A stretch of DNA of 24,000 nucleotides from Sulfurovum riftiae (GTDB taxonomy: Bacteria > Campylobacterota > Campylobacteria > Campylobacterales > Sulfurovaceae): assembly GCF_001595645.1 (NCBI RefSeq), contig NZ_LNKT01000045.1, positions 69,472-93,471 of the forward strand, given 5' to 3'. A program made the position numbers and the translations under genes. Positions 2,951-23,766 of the stretch are shown here, piece by piece (the stretch's first letter is position 1; each line of letters starts with the position of its first letter). The notes beneath the pieces were generated by a model. That model was given only the letters and a program-made list of their open reading frames with translations, was not told the origin of the DNA and searched no databases.

Positions 2951-3799
2951 GTGAAAATCTTACTTATCAATTTCAATCCTGTTGTCTCCAGACTTTTTGC
3001 TTTGTGTACGCGTGATGCGCATATTGAGTTGGATGAAGTGGAGGAGGTCAGCGATGTTGAGAGGGGAAAGCACTATGATCTGCTGTTTGTGGATGATGCT
3101 TCCTATGTGGAGAGTGTCAAAGAGTTCATGGAGAGCAGAAGCATAGGCAAAAAAGTGTTTATCTCGTATGAGCCGGGGAGTGTTTCCGGTTTTAACCTCA
3201 CTCTGAAAAAACCTTTTCTTCCGTCACAAATCCTGAATATCATAGAGAATGCGACGGTTGCAGAAGAAGTGAAAGAGGAAGAGGAGGAAGCACCGGTGAT
3301 CTTCCCTTTGGATGAAGAGGAAAAGAACATTGAAGAGAGTAAAGAGGATTCAGAAGTGACACCGTCGATCTTTCCGTTGGCTGCGGAAGAGACAGAGGAA
3401 GAGGAGATCGTTCCGGAGAATCCTCACATACTCGACAGCAGAGAGATTGAAAAGATAAAGGATCTGCTCGATATGGAAGAGAATGAAATACTCCCTGTCG
3501 AAGAGGAGCTCCCCGAGGAAGTGGTGGAGCAGCGAAAGGTAGAGGCCATTACGGCTCAGCTGATCGCAGACGGGCTTGAGATCGTTGAGGAAGAGGAGAT
3601 CGTCAAGACGATACAGGCGGGAAAGAAGTCCAAAAAGAAGAAAAAAAAGGAAGATACGGGTCCTTTCAGCAAAGAGGAGTTCGATGCTATCCAAAAGGCA
3701 TTCAGGGAAGCACTTTTCAGCCTTAAACCCAAAAAGATCAAAAAACTTCTCAAAGGCAAAAAAGTAGAATTGAAATTGAAACTAAAGGATCAGGACTGA
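2951..3799 (+). CDS. Poly-E-rich acidic protein with a degenerate receiver-like N-terminal domain (positional equivalent of H. pylori HP0322)
   Basis: GTG start with GGAG 9 nt upstream. The N-terminal ~100 aa (MKILLINFNPVV...YDLLFVDD...KKPFLPSQIL) resemble a CheY-like fold. Long E/K low-complexity tail. The stop overlaps the gmk start (TGATG). Confidence 0.7.
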   Translation: MKILLINFNPVVSRLFALCTRDAHIELDEVEEVSDVERGKHYDLLFVDDASYVESVKEFMESRSIGKKVFISYEPGSVSGFNLTLKKPFLPSQILNIIENATVAEEVKEEEEEAPVIFPLDEEEKNIEESKEDSEVTPSIFPLAAEETEEEEIVPENPHILDSREIEKIKDLLDMEENEILPVEEELPEEVVEQRKVEAITAQLIADGLEIVEEEEIVKTIQAGKKSKKKKKKEDTGPFSKEEFDAIQKAFREALFSLKPKKIKKLLKGKKVELKLKLKDQD

Positions 3800-4732: not shown

Positions 4733-4767
4733 GTTGAGCGCTGAGCGTTCAGCGTTCAGTGTTCGGA
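4733..4767 (+). repeat. Heptamer array GTTGAGC/GCTGAGC/GTTCAGC/GTTCAGT/GTTCGGA directly after the tatA stop; self-complementary
   Basis: 7-nt periodicity read directly. On the + strand RNA, 4733-4744 pairs with 4749-4760: 12 bp including 3 G.U, with loop GCGU. Confidence 0.8.
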
Positions 4768-9009: not shown

Positions 9010-10203
9010 ATGAAAACAGTAAAAGATATCGATATTGACGGCAAAAGAGTATTTATACGATGTGACTTCAACGTACCAAAAGACGAATTCGGTAACATCA
9101 CCGATGACAGACGTATCCGTTCTGCACTGCAGACGATCCGCTACTGCATTGACAGAGACTGCAAGATCATTCTTGCATCACATTATGAGAGACCGGAACC
9201 GGGCAAGTATGAAGAGAAATACTCTTTGAAACCCGTAGCAAAAAGGCTGCATACCCTTCTGAAGATCAAAAATGAACTCTATATGGCCAATGATGTGGTC
9301 GGTCCGGATGCCAAAGAGAAAGCGGCCAAACTGGAGGCAGGTGACGTTCTGATGCTTGAGAACCTTCGTTATGAAGCAGGGGAGACCAGCAATGATGAGG
9401 CATTTGCCAAAGAGTTGGCTTCCTTTGCCGATGTCTATATCAATGACGCTTTCGGTGCTTGCCATAGAAAGCATGCTTCTATCTATGCTATTGCAAAACA
9501 GTTCGACAGAGACCATAAAGCGGCAGGTTTTCTGATGGCAAAAGAAGTTAACTTCTTCAGCAAAGTACTTGAAGAACCTATCAGACCCTTTGTGGCGGTG
9601 GTAGGCGGATCGAAAGTATCGGGTAAACTTCAGGCTTTGACCAACCTCCTCAATAAAGTGGACAAAGTCATTATCGGCGGCGGTATGGCATTTACTTTTC
9701 TCAAGGCACAGGGCTATGAGATCGGCAAATCGCTGGTGGAGGATGACCTGATCGACGAAGCAAGGGACATCATGGAAAAAGCGCACTCTCTGGGTGTGAA
9801 ATTCTACCTCCCTGTCGATTTTGTCGTGGCACCGGAATTTTCAGAGAATACAGCAGTCAAATACCTTCCTTCCCAGGAGATCCCTCATGACTGGATGGGG
9901 CTCGATACGGGACCGGCCTCTTCAAGACTTTTCCGTGAAGTGCTCAACGATGCACAGACGATCATCTGGAACGGGCCAATGGGCGTGTACGAGATGGACA
10001 AGTTCTCCAAAGGGAGTATCATGATGTCTCACCATATCGCGGAGACACATGCAACGACCATTGTTGGCGGTGGTGATACTGCTGATGTGGCACAAAGAGC
10101 CGGGGATGTGGATGAAATGACCTTTGTCAGTACCGGAGGCGGTGCAAGCCTCAAGCTGATAGAGGGAATCAAACTTCCCGGTCTTGAAGCATTAGAAAAG
10201 TGA
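9010..10203 (+). CDS. pgk: Phosphoglycerate kinase
   Basis: RxDFNVP, GGAKVSxK-like (GGSKVSGK), GGGDT and STGGGA motifs. The stop codon TGA forms the first 3 nt of the heptamer array. Confidence 0.96.
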
Positions 10204-10228
10204 ACAGAGTACAGTGAACAATGAACAA
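10199..10228 (+). repeat. Cassette 1, 5' arm: tandem heptamers TGAACAG/AGTACAG/TGAACAA/TGAACAA
   Basis: 7-nt periodicity read directly. 10209-10223 (GTACAGTGAACAATG) is the perfect reverse complement of 10582-10596. The arm contains the pgk stop and the four-helix-bundle ATG. Confidence 0.9.
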
Positions 10229-10580
10229 TAATATTTTGAGTGAAAAAAGTTTTTCTTTTGCCCTTAGAATCATTAAATTGTCATCGTTCCTAACTGATAA
10301 AAAAAGAGAGTATACTCTTTCAAAACAGATTTTACGAAGTGGTACTTCAATTGGTGCTTTGGTGCGTGAAGCACAATATGCACAGTCCAAATCGGATTTT
10401 ATTCATAAATTAAGTATTGCACTTAAAGAAGCCAATGAAACAGAATATTGGTTGCAGTTATTGGTAGAGTCTGAATATATAAGTCGTAAGATGTTTGAAA
10501 GTATTGAACCAGAAATAAAAGAGTTATTGAGATTATTGATCTCAAGTATAAAAACCACAAAACAAAATATAAATACATAA
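10221..10580 (+). CDS. Four-helix-bundle protein (23S rRNA intervening-sequence protein family, TIGR02436/PF05635, Avd-like), copy 1
   Basis: Family-typical KSFSFALRIIKL...LSKQILRSGTSIGALVREAQYAQSKSDFIHKLSIALKEANETEYWLQLL. About 119 aa. Much more AT-rich than pgk and tpiA. Confidence 0.9.
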   Translation: MNNNILSEKSFSFALRIIKLSSFLTDKKREYTLSKQILRSGTSIGALVREAQYAQSKSDFIHKLSIALKEANETEYWLQLLVESEYISRKMFESIEPEIKELLRLLISSIKTTKQNINT

Positions 10581-10581
10581 G

Positions 10582-10614
10582 CATTGTTCACTGTACATTG
10601 TACATTGTTCACTG
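10582..10614 (+). repeat. Cassette 1, 3' arm: tandem heptamers CATTGTT/CACTGTA/CATTGTA/CATTGTT/CACTG
   Basis: 7-nt periodicity. Inverted complement of the 5' arm. Starts 2 nt after the ORF stop and ends just before the tpiA RBS (AAAGGA). Confidence 0.9.
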
Positions 10615-11316: not shown

Positions 11317-11327
11317 GAAATTGGAGT

Positions 11328-11363
11328 CGGGACTTCAGTCCCGTTAACGCGACTGAAGTCGCG
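11328..11363. terminator. Twin hairpins between convergent tpiA and nusA
   Basis: CGGGAC-TTCA-GTCCCG (11328-11343) and CGCGAC-TGAA-GTCGCG (11348-11363), arranged around a central GTTAAC. No clean U-tract on either strand, so terminator function is uncertain. Confidence 0.5.
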
Positions 11364-11379
11364 ATTCCTGGAGGAGGTT

Positions 11380-13010: not shown

Positions 13011-13037
13011 CTTACACTCATTAAACACTTTATCTTC

Positions 13038-13067
13038 TACCCCTACCCACATTACCCACTACCCACT
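13038..13067 (+). repeat. Approximately heptameric tract TACCCC/TACCCACAT/TACCCAC/TACCCAC just upstream of the miaB ATG
   Basis: Read directly. Opposite polarity (CTAC vs GTAG) to the 12983-13010 tract and only partly complementary to it. It occupies the place where an SD would be expected. Confidence 0.6.
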
Positions 13068-13072
13068 ATAAA

Positions 13073-15900: not shown

Positions 15901-15948
15901 CCCTTCGACAGGCTCAGGGACCGAGGAAAAAAATCGTTTATCCCGTAG

Positions 15949-15975
15949 GGTGGGCTTCAGCCCACCTTTCTTTAC
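15949..15975 (+). terminator. Hairpin plus T-rich tail downstream of xerH (first hairpin of a double-hairpin element)
   Basis: GGTGGGC-TTCA-GCCCACC followed by TTTCTTTAC. Confidence 0.55.
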
Positions 15976-16036
15976 AATTCGGATTTGAAATAATAATCCA
16001 TTTGTCTATAGGTTTTTTGGTGGGCTAAAGCCCACC

Positions 16037-17020
16037 CTACGGAAGTATTGTTAGGTCAATATTTTCCCGGTACAAATACGCTCTGATCTTGGGAGGAATC
16101 CTTTTGACCCTGCACTTTTCTTTGAATTCTTTTGGCATATCTGTTGTAACGTAGGGGGCAACATAAAGAAGGTCATCCTCTATTTCAATTGCCCACTCCC
16201 CACCAATGACCAGACTTTTTTCTCTTGCTATTTCTTCTCTCTGAGCAGAGGAAAGAAGATATCCCAGTTTTTTCAGTGTAAGGTCAGCAGCTTTTACTTT
16301 TGAACTAGTCTGCCTGAGTTTGATGATACGCAGTTGTTTTTCAGCGAAAAGCGTTTCGAAACCGGATTCGAGCAGTTTTTTATCGTCTCTCAGATAGGAA
16401 AAACTTCGTTTGATCCCCTCTCTGAATTGGGAAATGAGCGGATCGGAAAACGCTTTTCTAAAACGGTTACGTTCATATTTTTCATTGCTGTTGCTGTCGT
16501 CTATGAAATAGGGATAGTTATGTATTTCTAAATAATCAAGCAGTTCTTCCTTGGAATATTCAAGAAGAGGTCGAATCAAAGTATATCCATCCCTTTTACT
16601 TACTGGTTCAAGCCCAATGAGTTCTGAAAGCCCGGCTCCTTTGGTCAGGCGCATAAAAAGCCATTCAAGCTGGTCGTTCAGTTGATGTGCGGTCAGAAGC
16701 GTATCGTAGCCATGTTCTGCAATAAGGGTTTCAAAAAAATCGTAGCGGAATTTTCGTGCGTTTGCTTCAAAATGAGTTTTGAATACTGGTGCCTTGGTGG
16801 TGTAACACTTTTTGCCATATTTTTTCGCCAATGCTTTGGCATGCTCCTCTTCCTTGTTACTTTCCGGTCGTGTTCCGTAATTCACCAACGCGATATCGAA
16901 AGGGATATTGTTTTCCAAAAGAAGGAAAAAGAGGGCGGAAGAGTCTATTCCTGCTGAGAAGGCGAGCAGATTCTTCTTTTGAAGTAGGAAGTAGGAAGTA
17001 GGAAGTAGCAATTGAGACAT
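16037..17020 (-). CDS. tilS: tRNA(Ile)-lysidine synthetase
   Basis: PP-loop SAGIDSS (SGGxDS type) and a TilS-like central region. The first ~13 codons (MSQLLLPTSYFLL) are encoded by cassette/repeat sequence. The ATG overlaps the upstream four-helix-bundle stop (TAATG). Confidence 0.88.
   Translation of the reverse strand: MSQLLLPTSYFLLQKKNLLAFSAGIDSSALFFLLLENNIPFDIALVNYGTRPESNKEEEHAKALAKKYGKKCYTTKAPVFKTHFEANARKFRYDFFETLIAEHGYDTLLTAHQLNDQLEWLFMRLTKGAGLSELIGLEPVSKRDGYTLIRPLLEYSKEELLDYLEIHNYPYFIDDSNSNEKYERNRFRKAFSDPLISQFREGIKRSFSYLRDDKKLLESGFETLFAEKQLRIIKLRQTSSKVKAADLTLKKLGYLLSSAQREEIAREKSLVIGGEWAIEIEDDLLYVAPYVTTDMPKEFKEKCRVKRIPPKIRAYLYRENIDLTILP
16981..17008. repeat. Cassette 2 arm: (GAAGTAG)x4, perfect, lying inside tilS codons 4-13
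   Basis: Four identical tandem heptamers read directly. Reverse complement of 17373-17396 (24 nt, perfect). Confidence 0.95.
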
Positions 17021-17373
17021 TATATAGATTCTTTGATTTTTTTTGTACTTGAAATAAGAAGTTTTAGAAGCTCATCTATTTCAGGAGCAATACTATTGTA
17101 CATTTTCTCATTGATATAATTAGATTCATTGAGTATTAAGAGCCAATATTCTGTTTCATTTGCTTCTTTAAGTGCGATAGTAAGCTTGTGTAGAAAATCA
17201 GCTGTTGATTGTGCATATTGTGCTTCTCTTATGAGTGCTCCAATGGATGTTCCACTTCGTAAAATTTGTTTTGAAAGTATATGTTCTTTGTGATTTTTCT
17301 GTAAATACTGGGAAAGCTTGACAATACGTAAGGCAAAAGAGAAACTTTTGTCGCGTAAGAGATCTTTTTTCAT
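17020..17373 (-). CDS. Four-helix-bundle protein (23S rRNA IVS protein / Avd-like family), copy 2
   Basis: KSFSFALRIVKL...LSKQILRSGTSIGALIREAQYAQSTADFLHKLTIALKEANETEYWLLIL. 117 aa and AT-rich. Lies 2 nt after the rimO stop and overlaps the tilS start by 1 nt. Confidence 0.9.
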   Translation of the reverse strand: MKKDLLRDKSFSFALRIVKLSQYLQKNHKEHILSKQILRSGTSIGALIREAQYAQSTADFLHKLTIALKEANETEYWLLILNESNYINEKMYNSIAPEIDELLKLLISSTKKIKESI

Positions 17374-17399
17374 TCCTACTTCCTACTTCCTACTTCCTC
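17373..17399. repeat. Cassette 2 arm: (TTCCTAC)x3 plus one degenerate unit, forming the rimO C-terminus and stop and reaching the first base of the four-helix-bundle start codon
   Basis: Read directly. Encodes the RimO tail ..SEEVGSRK* on the minus strand. Perfect 24-nt complement of 16981-17008. Confidence 0.95.
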
Positions 17400-20702: not shown

Positions 20703-20778
20703 TGGTGGCGCCGGACGGAATCGAACCGCCGACACATGGATTTTCAATCCATTGCTCTACCAACTGAGCTACGGAGCC
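20703..20778 (-). tRNA. tRNA-Phe (anticodon GAA)
   Basis: The reverse complement reads GGCTCCGTAGCTCAGTTGGTAGAGCAATGGATTGAAAATCCATGTGTCGGCGGTTCGATTCCGTCCGGCGCCACCA. Cloverleaf with D arm GCTC/GAGC, anticodon loop TTGAAAA, T-loop TTCGATT and encoded CCA. One U4:C69 acceptor mismatch. Confidence 0.93.
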
Positions 20779-20921: not shown

Positions 20922-22166
20922 TTAAAGTTGTTTTACCAGGTTCATAAAGATCTCTCCTCTTTGGGCGTAATTCTTGAACTGGTCAAAACTTGCAGCGGCG
21001 GGGGAGAGGAGGCCTACATCATCGGCCTGCATATTTTTGTCAATGGCATGTACGGCGTTTTCAAGTGTGTTTGATTCGACGGCAGGGATATTGTATTCCC
21101 TGGCAAGTGAAAGAAGTCTTTCGCTGTTCGCCCCGATCGTATATAATGTAAGTGAAACCTGGGACATGGCTTCAAAATAGGGGTGCAGGTCAACACCCTT
21201 GTCATCCCCCCCTGCAATGAGGTGGATGTGATGGTCGTCATAGGCCTTTATGGCCTGGACCGCGGCATCCACATTGGTTGCTTTGGAGTCATTCACCCAG
21301 AGTCTTCCTTGTGCATCGTGGAACTCCTGCTGCCTGTTGAGATCCATTTTGAAGGTATTGATACAGGCATAGTCCACTTCGTCGAAAAGGACACGGGTCA
21401 CTGCCAGTGCCAGCATGGCATCTTCCAGAAAGGCCGCTTTGAAGTTGATGAGGGCCGGGTCAATGTTGAAATAGTCCGAGAGGAAATCTGTGGAGTCGTA
21501 CTCGACGACAAAAGCATCTGTTTCAGGCAGGTTCAGCCCTTTGGGGACCAGTGCCAGCTCCCCCTCTTTCATGGTAAGCAGCGGACGGAGCTTGTCTGCC
21601 TCATAGGCCTCTTCCGTACCGTGCCAATCAAGATGATCCGGTGTGATGGGAAGCAGGAGATAAATATCCGGTGAGGCGGTCTTTGTATAGTGAAGGGCAT
21701 AGGAACTTGACTCGAGTACCCAGATGGGGGCTTCTGCATCCATTGCCGCCAAGGGTACGCCGATGTTTCCCCCGCTTACCGCACCCCTGTGTTCGAGCAG
21801 GTGGGTAAGCATCTGGGTGGTGGTGGTCTTGCCATTGGTGCCACTGATCCAAACTGTGAATGGCATATGCCGTTCAAGTGAAGAGTGAAGAGTGAAGAGT
21901 GAAGAATGATGTGGTGCCAGAATGTAGTCATATTCGCTCAAAAGATGTTTGGCTTTCTGAATGAGCGGATGGTTTGGCTTGAGGCTTGGTGTAGTGACCT
22001 CAAGTTCACTTTTGTCCGGATCGAACAGCGAAGAGGGCAGTATCTTGTTGCCTTCCTCATCTGTATAGGGTTCTTTGACATTGTCATCATAGAAGATACA
22101 TCCCCCTCCCAGCTTTTTGGCAATGGCTCTAGTGGTCAGTCCGTATCCGAATAGTGTGGGCTTCAT
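20922..22166 (-). CDS. murD: UDP-N-acetylmuramoylalanine--D-glutamate ligase
   Basis: Epsilon-type N-terminus MKPTLFGYGLTTRAIAKKL, P-loop GTNGKTTTT, Mur ligase central and C-terminal domains (NDSKATN). Carries an in-frame heptamer-array insertion just before the P-loop. Confidence 0.93.
   Translation of the reverse strand: MKPTLFGYGLTTRAIAKKLGGGCIFYDDNVKEPYTDEEGNKILPSSLFDPDKSELEVTTPSLKPNHPLIQKAKHLLSEYDYILAPHHSSLFTLHSSLERHMPFTVWISGTNGKTTTTQMLTHLLEHRGAVSGGNIGVPLAAMDAEAPIWVLESSSYALHYTKTASPDIYLLLPITPDHLDWHGTEEAYEADKLRPLLTMKEGELALVPKGLNLPETDAFVVEYDSTDFLSDYFNIDPALINFKAAFLEDAMLALAVTRVLFDEVDYACINTFKMDLNRQQEFHDAQGRLWVNDSKATNVDAAVQAIKAYDDHHIHLIAGGDDKGVDLHPYFEAMSQVSLTLYTIGANSERLLSLAREYNIPAVESNTLENAVHAIDKNMQADDVGLLSPAAASFDQFKNYAQRGEIFMNLVKQL
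21879..21907. repeat. Intragenic heptamer array (TGAAGAG)x3 plus TGAAGAA inside murD
   Basis: Read directly. Same sequence and orientation as the 22187-22216 arm. Translated on the minus strand as HHSSLFTLHSSLE. Confidence 0.9.
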
Positions 22167-22186
22167 GAAAAACTCCGCTTTTCAAA

Positions 22187-22216
22187 TGAAGAGTGAAGAG
22201 TGAAGAGTGAAGAGTG
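22187..22216. repeat. Cassette 3 arm: (TGAAGAG)x4 between the four-helix-bundle stop and the murD RBS
   Basis: Four perfect tandem heptamers. Reverse complement of 22657-22677. Confidence 0.95.
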
Positions 22217-22250
22217 TTGGTTTGCATTGCTGTGCAATGCTTCTATTATA

Positions 22251-22610
22251 TCAGGATGCATTGTTGATGTTCTCTTTTGCTGTTTTGATACTTGATGCAA
22301 GTATTTTTAAAAGGTGTTCTATATCGTCAAGGAGACTAAGTGCAAGTTTTTCCTGAAGATAATTACAGTCCTTTAAAAGCCGTAGCCAGTATTTTGTTTC
22401 ATTTGCTTCTTTAAGTGAAATAGATAGTTTATTGATAAAGTCAAGTTTTGATTGTGCATACTTGCCTTCTGCGATCAAGGCACCAATCGCCGTTCCTGAA
22501 CGTAAAAGCTGTTTGCTAAGAATAAATTCTTTTTTCTCTTGCTGTAAATACTCATTACATTTTACAATGCGAATGGAAAAATTGTAACTCTTCTCTTCTA
22601 GTATACTCAT
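22251..22610 (-). CDS. Four-helix-bundle protein (23S rRNA IVS protein / Avd-like family), copy 3
   Basis: KSYNFSIRIVKC...LSKQLLRSGTAIGALIAEGKYAQSKLDFINKLSISLKEANETKYWLRLL. 119 aa, AT-rich, and the most diverged of the three copies. Confidence 0.88.
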   Translation of the reverse strand: MSILEEKSYNFSIRIVKCNEYLQQEKKEFILSKQLLRSGTAIGALIAEGKYAQSKLDFINKLSISLKEANETKYWLRLLKDCNYLQEKLALSLLDDIEHLLKILASSIKTAKENINNAS

Positions 22611-22656
22611 GGTTCTTTCTCAAAAGATGGAAGCTTTCTGAAAGAAAGCATACCAC

Positions 22657-22688
22657 AACTCTTCACTCTTCACTCTTAATTCTTCACT
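22657..22688. repeat. Cassette 3 arm: ACTCTTC/ACTCTTC/ACTCTTA/ATTCTTC/ACTG between the mraY stop and the four-helix-bundle gene
   Basis: 7-nt periodicity. 22658-22677 is a perfect 20-nt complement of the (GAAGAGT)n arm. Confidence 0.9.
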
Positions 22689-22707
22689 GCTCAAAGTAAA
22701 GCTTTGA

Positions 22708-23766
22708 TCATCTAATTTTAAGTGTGATGAGTGCGAGTACATTGGTGATGAATGCGATCATCCAGAAGCGGATGATGATCTTGTTCTCGGGCCACTCTTT
22801 GAGTTCGAAGTGGTGGTGGATGGGTGCCATGAGGAAAACACGTTTCTTGCGCAGTTTGTAGCTTCCGACCTGCAGAATGACAGAAACAGTTTCCATGACG
22901 AAGATGAAACCGATGAGAATGAGCAGGACCTCACTTTTGCCAAGGATGGCAAGGTATGCCAGAAAACCACCGATAGAGAGGCTTCCCGTATCTCCCATGA
23001 AGATCTCCGCCGGATAACAGTTGTACCATAAGAATCCCATAAGTGCACCGGCAAGTGCAGTAGTAAGGACCAGGACCTCTCCCACACCTTTGATGTTGGG
23101 CATCAGGAGGTACTCGCTGATGATTGCATGTCCTGTAATGTAGACGATGACGCCAAGAGAGACGAGAGAGATGATGGAAGGTACCGTTGCCAGGCCATCC
23201 AGGCCATCGGTAAGGTTCACGGCATTGGTGACAGCAAGGAACATGACGATCCAAAAGGGGATGGCAAAATACCCCATATCAAAAAGTGGTGTCTTGACAA
23301 AAGGCACATAGAATTCAGTGGGGAAACCGGAGTAGACAAGCAGGCCGGTGGAGATAAGGGCAACAACGACCTGCAGGCCCATTTTTCCGCGGGGAGTAAG
23401 CCCCTCAAGGTTGTCACCTGAGAGAATTTTCCCAATGTCATCCTTAAAGCCTACCAGGCCAAAACCTACAAGAGTAATAAGCCCACCCCAGACATAGATG
23501 TTGGCCAGGTCGATGACGATGAATGCGGCGATAAGTGTTGCCGTAATGAAAACCGCTCCGCCCATAGTAGGGGTCTTTCCTTTGCCTGCATGTGCTGCGA
23601 CATATTTGCTGATGGGCTGGTTGGCATTTTTGGAAATGGCCCAGGCCAGATACTTTGGCATGAGTATCAAGACAAGCAGAAAAGCAAGCAGAAAAGCGAG
23701 TCCGGCACGCACGGAGATGTATCCGAAAAGGTTCATGTGGAGGAGATGGTTCAGTTCATATAGCAT
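22708..23766 (-). CDS. mraY: Phospho-N-acetylmuramoyl-pentapeptide transferase
   Basis: Ten-TM protein with [13 protein letters not shown], the conserved [11 protein letters not shown] motif (here [11 protein letters not shown]), and APIHHHFE. Confidence 0.95.

Follow-up and report, generated by a model that had tools for sequence, protein, structure and literature searches.

The junction of the cell-wall genes mraY and murD in Sulfurovum riftiae is occupied by a cassette that consists of a small open reading frame (ORF) enclosed by two inverted arrays of tandem heptamers. The cassette was analyzed within a 24,000-nucleotide (nt) stretch of contig NZ_LNKT01000045.1 (positions 69,472 to 93,471; hereafter, the window, whose coordinates are used throughout). 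The upstream host gene, mraY (22708-23766, 352 amino acids; PF00953, E = 1.2e-33), the ORF (22251-22610, 119 amino acids) and the downstream host gene, murD (20922-22166, 414 amino acids; Mur ligase domains PF08245 and PF02875) are all encoded on the minus strand. The stop codon of mraY is the TGA at 22708-22710, and the ATG of murD is at 22164-22166. The closest relatives of this MraY come from Sulfurovum metagenome-assembled genomes (MAGs), with up to 88% identity (L001; such handles denote the relatives' loci taken for comparison, and WIN denotes the window copy), and for MurD, the identity to the proteins of close relatives is 66-81%.

In the RNA sense, the 5' arm (AGTGAAGA-ATTAAGA-GTGAAGA-GTGAAGA-GTT, 22657-22688, minus strand), delineated with Tandem Repeats Finder (TRF) and by folding, is purine-rich and includes a single conserved odd unit, ATTAAGA. 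The 3' arm, (ACTCTTC)x4.3 (22187-22216, minus strand; 100% matches in TRF), is pyrimidine-rich and contains no stop codon in any of the three frames. On the plus strand, the arms read as (ACTCTTC)x4.4 at 22658-22688 (83% matches in TRF) and (TGAAGAG)x4.3 at 22187-22216, respectively. An earlier reading of this locus, made from the letters of the DNA and its ORFs (hereafter, the sequence-only reading), had described both arrays and 20 perfect base pairs between them, and this description is accurate: the longest perfect complement joins 22189-22208 with 22658-22677. The complementarity of the arms extends to ~60 nt at 77%, so that the two inner hairpins described below mirror each other. The distances from the arms to the mraY stop and the murD ATG, given previously as about 20 nt, are 19 and 20 nt, the Shine-Dalgarno (SD) sequence of murD (GGAG, 22173-22176) indeed lies outside the arm, and the spacers, estimated at 35-45 nt, measure 46 nt between the 5' arm and the ORF and 34 nt between the ORF and the 3' arm. 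With up to two mismatches, the 14-mer GAAGAGTGAAGAGT occurs 9 times in the window compared with 0.22 expected, and none of 100 shuffled sequences reached this number.

The predicted fold of the minus-strand RNA (minimum free energy of -142.2 kcal/mol, z = -5.3) contains a long-range helix between the arms, which pair over 20 bp, a 3x3 loop that results from the odd unit ATTAAGA, and another 8 bp, with a short extension; in other words, the prediction is that the arms close into a ~30-bp helix with a conserved internal loop. The two inner hairpins, each with a 7-bp stem, are present in the spacers as described in the sequence-only reading: H1 (22633-22649, minus strand; evident in the plus-strand sequence as GCTTTCT-GAA-AGAAAGC) and H2 (22224-22240, minus strand; GCATTGC-ACA-GCAATGC in the RNA sense), located 10 nt past the stop codon of the ORF. 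Outside the arms, there are two more elements, namely, the hairpin H0 (TCAAAGC-TTTA-CTTTGA, 22691-22707, minus strand), directly after the mraY stop, and the segment H3 (TTTGAAAAGC-GGA-GTTTTTC, 22167-22186, minus strand), the hairpin loop of which holds the murD SD. The same scheme, that is, H0, a helix in which 8 bp and 20 bp flank an internal loop, the extension, an H1/H2 multiloop carrying the ORF, and H3, is recovered in all 11 mini-constructs that were folded, and 11 of the 42 pairs in the RNAalifold consensus stay paired despite changes on both sides, in line with the claim that the architecture is maintained over considerable evolutionary distance. In L090, a G-C pair is replaced by U-A in all units of both arms; in L007, the 3' arm alone is altered, with four units changed to ACTCCTC, which creates four A-C oppositions.

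The question of whether the inner hairpins are conserved, posed in the sequence-only reading, has a different answer for each of the two. The structure of H2 is maintained through compensatory stem changes in L007, L081, L085, L169 and L090, with the stems GCATTGC/GCAATGC, GCATTCT/AGAATGC, GTTTTGC/GCAAAAC, ACAAAC/GTTTGT and GCACAC/GTGTGC, and for H1, it is mainly the sequence that is conserved across subfamily A of the cassettes, with double-sided changes in one of six pairs. Two copies of H1 within L088 differ by an inversion of the loop (GCTTTTC-TTTT-GAAAAGC at 1434-1790 vs GCTTTTC-AAAA-GAAAAGC at 3001-3357). H0 is confined to the Sulfurovum subfamilies, and variants at its position in L007, L022, L018, L021 and L023 show covarying stems (caaagc/gctttg vs tgaagc/gcttca); H3 is missing at the empty sites L002, L063 and L014.

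The product of the ORF (hereafter, IVP3) is 100% identical to an annotated Sulfurovum riftiae protein and is a member of the 23S rRNA intervening-sequence, or four-helix-bundle, family with an Avd-like fold. It matches PF05635 with E = 7.2e-27 (94.1 bits, with a cut-off of 33.8) and TIGR02436 with E = 2.9e-29 (101.5 bits, with a cut-off of 24), and a profile search retrieves the structure 2RLD from the Protein Data Bank (PDB) with E = 1.8e-44. The AlphaFold model of IVP3 (predicted local distance difference test score of 95.4) consists of four helices, and Foldseek aligns it with template modeling (TM) scores of 0.89 to 2RLD, 0.83 to 2GSC (Xcc0516) and 0.72-0.76, with a probability of 1.00, to Avd of diversity-generating retroelements (DGRs), both alone (4DWL) and in the structures of the ribonucleoprotein (RNP; 8UB* entries). 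The ORF is preceded by an SD-like sequence of its own, GAGAAAG, ~6 nt 5' of the ATG. Comparison of the subfamily-A copies gives a dN/dS of 0.03-0.17, dS being saturated for most pairs, which indicates that the protein is functional; IVP is under strong purifying selection. The arm is constrained as well: the 32-nt 5' arm AGTGAAGAATTAAGAGTGAAGAGTGAAGAGTT, odd unit included, is identical in WIN, L007, L022, L085 and L089, so that, given the saturated dS, the constraint on the arm far exceeds that on synonymous sites. PF05635 comprises 14,733 clusters at 50% identity; homologs are carried by 2 of 50,697 phage records and by 31 plasmid records, mostly large Nostoc plasmids, and IVP3 matched no PADLOC or PHROGs model at E <= 0.01.

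Gain, loss and decay of the cassette

In most of the 80 Campylobacterota loci that were found via MraY and compared, mraY and murD are separated by a gap of only 2-40 nt (4 nt in L002, 3 nt in L063, 9 nt in L014 and 2 nt in Campylobacter). Because relatives have such empty sites, the cassette is an insertion, and it does split the mraY-murD pair, as had been proposed. The same position is occupied by a subfamily-A cassette in L007, L022 and L081 (Sulfurovum sp. ST-21), with the 5' arm, H1 and H2 identical, and by a cassette of a second subfamily, with AATGAGT/ACTCATT arms, in L006, L009 and L028. Decayed copies also are seen at this junction: in L032, the ORF has become a pseudogene, L020 has lost it by deletion, and ORF-less remnants of subfamily A are found in L018, L021, L023 and L029.

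The cassette is not tied to this junction. Cassettes with the same arms and with proteins that are 84-90% identical are present at priA-gcpE, gcpE-dnaB and mraY-murD, all in the sense orientation of the host genes, and IVP3 homologs with 67-84% identity reside at priA-gcpE in many Sulfurovum genomes. One genome carries an additional copy at gcpE-dnaB, where its relatives have an empty site with a TGATG overlap. Between two genomes compared, nucleotide identity is 95-97% for the cassette vs 86.8% for the flanking gcpE. In L185 and L187 (~1870-2000 and 2360-2440), a GAAGAGT cassette is nested inside the arms of an older cassette of the GAATAGT type, in the order of a GTGAATA-type 5' arm, a complete GAAGAGT cassette ending with (ACTCTTC)4, and the remnant ACTATCTT, so that one cassette appears to have replaced another within the older arms. 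Such gain, loss, replacement and decay are the behavior of a mobile or horizontally exchanged element.

Several observations concern these and adjacent sites. At the new gcpE-dnaB site of L088 (2860-3000 and 3357-3460, compared with 4440-4520 of L085), the gcpE TGA falls within the 5' arm, and the 3' half of a 13-bp hairpin, TTTTCCATCAAAA-gga-TTTTGATGGAAAA, is the native start region of dnaB; this hairpin may have arisen either from microhomology at insertion or through templated palindrome growth. The 820-aa DnaB proteins of L085-L088 (for example, L088 3436-5898) contain an intein, with Hom_end_hint and LAGLIDADG matches, and therefore a second kind of selfish element is present within the same operon. 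In the Nitratifractor-like MAGs L056, L058 and L059, the mraY-murD gaps of 200-420 nt are packed with four to eight different heptamer arrays and no ORF (for example, L059 11060-11470). Heptamer arrays of the ACTAATT/AATTNTT type are located directly past the murD stop in L004 (7567-7592), L009 (2991-3022) and L007 (12889-12925), which suggests a further hot spot.

A third array of the window unit, (ACTCTTC)x4.7 in the RNA sense (21877-21909, minus strand; 96% matches in TRF), lies in frame inside murD, where its codons specify HSSLFTLHSSLE, part of the linker that joins the N-terminal domain to the central one. In unit and orientation, this array corresponds to the 3' arm of the cassette, and it is preceded by ACCACA, comparable to ACCAACA in the cassette. 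When 64 MurD proteins are aligned, the base state (399 aa) runs from SEYDYF straight into MPFSIWISGTNGKT, and a subset of Sulfurovum species has an insert of 4-36 extra residues in the linker. The DNA of the relatives' inserts consists of decayed cassette pieces, including 5'-arm-like arrays, such as GGGAGCA and the subfamily-B AATGAGCAACCGA, a pyrimidine-rich array, an H2-like hairpin, and a hairpin the 3' half of which is formed by the host codons for PFT. The unit inside murD differs among species (ACTCTTC in the window, ACTCCTC in L007 and L020, ATTCCTC in L009, CTACTTC in L081 and ATCTTCC in L059) although each array is internally uniform; this is concerted evolution. In a model of an 866-nt transcript (21850-22715, minus strand), the partner of the 5' arm is this distal array and not the proximal 3' arm; the latter is paired with IVP codons 4-8 (GAAGAGAAGAGU, ~22587-22598), so that alternative helices are possible.

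Generality of the heptamer arms

The heptameric design is by no means a peculiarity of Sulfurovum and recurs in cassettes from many phyla of bacteria. An alignment-based scan of metagenome contigs yielded 80 loci (gut, soil, termite, sediment and vent), which, together with other loci, give 79 non-redundant cassettes, some in cyanobacterial DNA. Among all periods from 3 to 12, seven is the sole tandem period within 150 nt of the ORF in these cassettes, with essentially no arrays of another period next to IVP ORFs. Period-7 arrays are found upstream of the ORF in 55 of the 79 cassettes, downstream in 58, on both sides in 44 and on at least one side in 69, compared with 6 of 790 shuffled sequences. 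The density of such arrays within 150 nt of IVP ORFs is 3.57 per kb vs 0.037 per kb elsewhere, a ~96-fold difference. Even in 1.07 Mb of sequence around mraY, chosen without regard to IVP, period-7 arrays number 31, and no other period accounts for more than five. The family-wide median length of an array is 4.3 units.

The sequence of the unit varies widely among cassettes, and the two arms of one cassette are complementary: the median arm-to-arm local score is 44 within the same cassette vs 18 for mismatched cassettes. On Nostoc plasmids, for instance, genes annotated as 'four helix bundle protein' are bracketed by GTCGGAG/CGACCTC and AATTCAA/TTTGAAT arrays. Where orientation could be scored, the upstream neighbor is co-oriented with the IVP ORF in 54 of 56 cases and the downstream neighbor in 55 of 60, and a median of 48 nt separates the IVP start from the upstream stop. 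The arms are asymmetric in composition (3% C in the 5' arm and 4% G in the 3' arm) and in purity, with 24 perfect arrays among the 3' arms vs 5 among the 5' arms (Wilcoxon p = 0.002). Stop codons in at least two frames are present in 51 of 55 5' arrays, mostly because of their C-poor composition. The mismatches in the 79 arm helices include 76 sense G-U and 107 sense A-C oppositions, both counts being inflated by concerted changes.

The idea that insertion is generally marked by outer hairpins built from the host flank, which stand out at gcpE-dnaB of L088 and at priA, was considered and rejected, given that the flanks of the 79 cassettes fold like shuffled sequences (median fold z of -0.16 and -0.11 outside the two arms); such hairpins are specific to subfamilies.

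Thus, inverted arrays of a cassette-specific heptamer apparently represent a general and undescribed design rule of PF05635 genes: apart from a remark on the Coxiella intervening sequence, the general heptamer-arm architecture was not found in the literature that could be consulted, many subscription papers being outside our reach. This generality, along with the assignment of the protein to PF05635 and hence its link to rRNA, and the array inside murD, goes beyond the sequence-only reading. We know of no function assigned to PF05635, apart from that of the DGR relative Avd, since the description of rRNA intervening sequences in the early 1990s. The locus and its relatives connect these genes with the excess of heptamer repeats, by placing the gene between inverted, cassette-specific arrays in essential operons, and show that an essential enzyme, MurD, can contain translated pieces of the element.

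Kinship with intervening sequences and rival explanations

The closest known relatives of the cassette are the intervening sequences (IVSs) of 23S rRNA that carry ORFs, reportedly described by Ralph and McClelland in 1993. The shared features are the PF05635/S23p protein encoded in the sense orientation, inverted repeats that form an enclosing stem, tandem heptamers on the 5' side, the lack of an own promoter and a sporadic distribution, and the rRNA elements, too, are thought to be selfish. ORF-bearing IVSs are known in Leptospira, Coxiella burnetii, Xanthomonas and Brucella (Warrier et al. 2016, PMC4990558), and in Salmonella, Leptospira and Coxiella, RNase III removes the IVS by cutting the stem (PMC4990558). 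The Coxiella IVS is particularly similar in that three tandem heptamers, GACAGAT, precede the ORF, and rapid amplification of cDNA ends (RACE) maps the RNase III cut to the first of these (PMC4990558). The differences are that the cassette is found in mRNA, between protein-coding genes, rather than in helix 9, 25 or 45 of 23S rRNA, that IVP3 is under purifying selection, and that H0, H1, H2, H3 and the stray array in a coding sequence are added to the design. No rRNA was detected in the window with Rfam, and because its location is not in rRNA, the cassette is not an rRNA IVS; it is an IVS-type PF05635 element in an mRNA operon junction, that is, an element of a known kind with a new location and design. 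The cassette is built like an rRNA IVS and, by analogy, probably works likewise.

Other known systems share individual features with the cassette. In the DGR RNP, Avd forms a basic pentamer and is bound to a stem-loop in the RNA of the element to which it belongs, and the DGR RNA contains complementary segments on both sides of the cargo (10.1101/2023.10.23.563531). IVP3 has the same four-helix-bundle fold as Avd (PDB 4DWL; DGR RNP 8UBE), but the sequence identity is just 13-18%, and the cassettes are solitary and located in housekeeping operons; a DGR was rejected because neither a reverse transcriptase nor a template/variable repeat pair was found among the scanned ORFs of the window, and no long direct repeat pair was found near the cassette. 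The arrays themselves resemble the heptameric simple sequence repeats (SSRs) of bacterial genomes, which are tandem 7-nt units, mostly in about four copies, intergenic within operons, often in inverted pairs and transcribed; with a period of 7 and 4.3 and 4.4 copies, the arms of the cassette belong to this class of intergenic repeats. Heptamers are also known among the short tandemly repeated repetitive (STRR) sequences of cyanobacteria. In Xanthomonas, GGGAATC arrays form 70-75 convergent pairs, and Nostoc has GGGGA(C/T)T arrays (Rehm et al. 2015, PMC4692102); the excess of heptameric SSRs in bacteria was reported without an explanation and without a link between the arrays and PF05635 genes (PMC4692102). 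Here and on the Nostoc plasmids, by contrast, the arrays bracket a PF05635 gene, and the unit varies from cassette to cassette, with no genome-wide motif.

The intrusion into MurD is reminiscent of the Rickettsia palindromic elements that, according to Ogata et al. 2000, reportedly are inserted in frame in protein-coding genes: in both cases, repeat-derived pieces are translated in frame in a surface linker of an essential gene's product. There is no sequence relation, however, and the murD insert is a heptamer array or a decayed pair of arms with a species-dependent unit. An integron gene cassette likewise is a promoter-less small ORF that relies on outside transcription, but this possibility was rejected because the element at hand is solitary and has arms at both ends, with no integrase among the scanned ORFs and no attC or attI site. 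MITEs, or miniature inverted-repeat transposable elements, also have inverted-repeat ends and ORF-less derivatives, with the difference that here the ends are tandem heptamer arrays; a transposon or MITE was rejected given that the sole ORF encodes the 119-aa bundle protein and that filled and empty sites show no flanking duplication.

Most likely, the cassette is a selfish insertion that rides the host operon and is kin to the ORF-bearing IVSs of 23S rRNA but resides in mRNA. That it is an insertion of the IVS type is highly probable, and we put the probability of the whole package, namely, a promoter-less, operon-riding IVS-type element in which the arms form an RNase III-type helix and IVP binds its own RNA, at about 0.55. 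Under this scenario, the cassette would be transcribed passively along with mraY and murD, and the arm helix would draw the mraY stop and the murD SD and ATG to within ~20 nt of its base. Like in the rRNA IVSs, RNase III would cut the arm helix, freeing the IVP message and leaving separate mraY and murD messages capped by H0 and H3, which would limit polarity on the essential genes and hence the harm to the host. The Avd-like IVP oligomer would bind the RNA of its own cassette, at the arms or at H1/H2, and would serve the element in maintenance, copying or control of cleavage. The heptameric build would allow the helix to tolerate gain and loss of units and would combine a stop-rich purine 5' arm with a stop-free 3' arm; because the latter lacks stops, a stray array of the 3' type would be able to persist in frame inside murD. 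The analysis thereby offers a concrete model of RNase III excision, binding of the arms by the protein, and the coming and going of cassettes at defined empty sites.

Several points weigh against this scenario. We infer both the cleavage and the mobility of the cassette, the cleavage by RNase III by analogy alone, and no mobility enzyme or mechanism was identified for the cassette. In Coxiella, the S23p ORF is decaying and apparently is not expressed (PMC4990558), whereas the IVP3 ORF is clearly selected. In the modeled 866-nt transcript, the distal pairing is preferred, and an RNase III cut there would destroy the murD mRNA. The stop-rich property of the 5' arms is observed in 93% of these compared with 81% in unit-shuffled nulls, and the idea that the heptamers exist to supply stops in three frames was rejected as their purpose in view of this high null value. 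Furthermore, the arms show no clear sense-RNA G-U signature, with A-C oppositions in four units of L007, which fits maintenance at the DNA level equally well or better, and the loop inversion in H1 of L088 is a DNA-level hairpin flip.

The main rival explanation, accordingly, is that the arms act in DNA, as terminal inverted repeats or as cruciform or hairpin ends for copying or recombination, with their complementarity preserved through template switching, a form of quasi-palindrome correction. RNA pairing would then be incidental, and IVP would be an accessory that handles DNA or cDNA, possibly together with a reverse transcriptase, as is the case for Avd, the fold of which it shares. We consider this explanation a serious contender, albeit well short of an even chance. 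In addition to the H1 flip and the almost exclusively Watson-Crick pairing of the arms, which lacks a sense-strand G-U excess, it is favored by the concerted change of units in both arms (GAAGAGT vs GAATAGT) with the odd unit kept, by units that turn over at orthologous positions, with uniformity retained inside each array, and by the outer hairpins that, at new sites, extend over the stop and start codons of the host genes. No transposase, integrase or reverse transcriptase was found, however, among the 19 scanned ORFs of the window, all of which are housekeeping genes or IVP copies, and no target-site duplication is apparent when filled and empty sites are compared. Besides, a pure DNA palindrome requires neither the near-universal sense orientation nor the asymmetry of composition and purity linked to transcription, and the homologous rRNA element has been shown to be processed by RNase III. 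Action at the DNA level is compatible with the IVS-type scenario, rather than exclusive of it.

Two further rivals fare less well. The cassette could be a domesticated regulator of the division and cell wall (dcw) operon, in which the helix and hairpins adjust the translation of murD or the stability of the mRNA and IVP is an RNA-binding regulator of the host. The location of the murD SD in the loop of H3 and of the mraY stop and murD start next to the helix base, the possible alternative pairing with the murD-internal array, and the long residence at the junction in several species, with dS saturated between orthologous copies, all would fit such a role, yet the closest relatives and most Campylobacterota lack the cassette and have the two genes tightly adjacent or overlapping, cassettes also lie between unrelated pairs of genes (pgk-tpiA, MiaB-like/tilS-like, priA-gcpE, gcpE-dnaB and gmk-nadD), and several lineages retain nothing but decayed remnants; a regulatory role therefore seems improbable. 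The sequence-only reading had itself raised the prospect that the arrays are ordinary local terminators unrelated to the ORF. Hairpins and repeats are indeed common in intergenic DNA, and one terminator-like match, in the antisense orientation, overlaps H2, but the terminator scan detected no sense-strand terminator and no T-tract, and the Rfam search of the window gave no match to the cassette. The long-range helix is predicted here and in the two other cassettes of the window, the arms pair across ~450 nt rather than locally, and the period-7 arrays, to the exclusion of any other period, track PF05635 ORFs in 69 of the 79 cassettes at the density given above. An intrinsic terminator or a repetitive extragenic palindromic (REP) hairpin was rejected on these grounds, and ordinary repeats unconnected with the ORF are an explanation to which we give almost no credence.

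The results also invite a much broader and, at this stage, doubtful proposition, that heptamer-armed PF05635 cassettes form a phylum-spanning class of operon-riding mobile elements, for which 23S rRNA is merely the best-known landing site. Within this proposition, full, ORF-less and solo-arm derivatives may be a major source of the heptamer excess, in-frame intrusions included, and the Avd-like protein may recognize its own arm helix or hairpins to drive copying and insertion or to gate excision by RNase III. It further includes an account of the reported association of 23S_rRNA_IVP genes with cas operons (PMC3936711, PMC10910872), which may reflect hitch-hiking, that is, insertion of cassettes between any co-oriented genes. 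If true, the existence of such a class would explain much of the heptamer-repeat excess in bacterial intergenic DNA. The behavior of these cassettes calls for caution in guilt-by-association annotation of PF05635 genes.

Further cassettes and repeats in the window

The window contains two more cassettes with PF05635-family ORFs. Cassette 1 (10195-10614; ORF at 10221-10580, plus strand) is located between pgk and tpiA and has arm units of the NNGNACA type, and cassette 2 (16981-17398; ORF at 17020-17373, minus strand) is flanked by a MiaB-like radical-SAM gene and a tilS-like gene and has GAAGTAG units. A 28-bp long-range helix is predicted for each. In both, the 5' arm contains the IVP start codon or abuts it, so that the helix would bury this codon. 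IVP3 shares 57-58% identity with the proteins of cassettes 1 and 2, compared with 68% for those two, and so is the most diverged of the three, as had been noted.

Two solo arrays without a PF05635 ORF are probably ORF-less remnants. One, GTTSAGC x4.6 (4733-4764), follows the tatA stop and precedes argS; the other, CTACCCA x4.4 (13037-13068), ends 4 nt before the ATG of a MiaB-like gene and has a degenerate GGTAG-type partner upstream.

A promoter scan found promoter-like sites no more often than expected by chance. The only Rfam match in the window, both at the gathering threshold and at E <= 1, is a tRNA gene directly downstream of murD (20706-20778, minus strand; 68.3 bits), within the region of cell-wall genes. 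REP-like palindromes, such as CCGTAGGGTGGGCTTCAGCCCACC, represent a separate class of repeats in the window (15943-16042 and 11323-11368), and related 'tagggtggg...cccacc' hairpins are present in the mraY-murD gaps of L004, L011 and L013.

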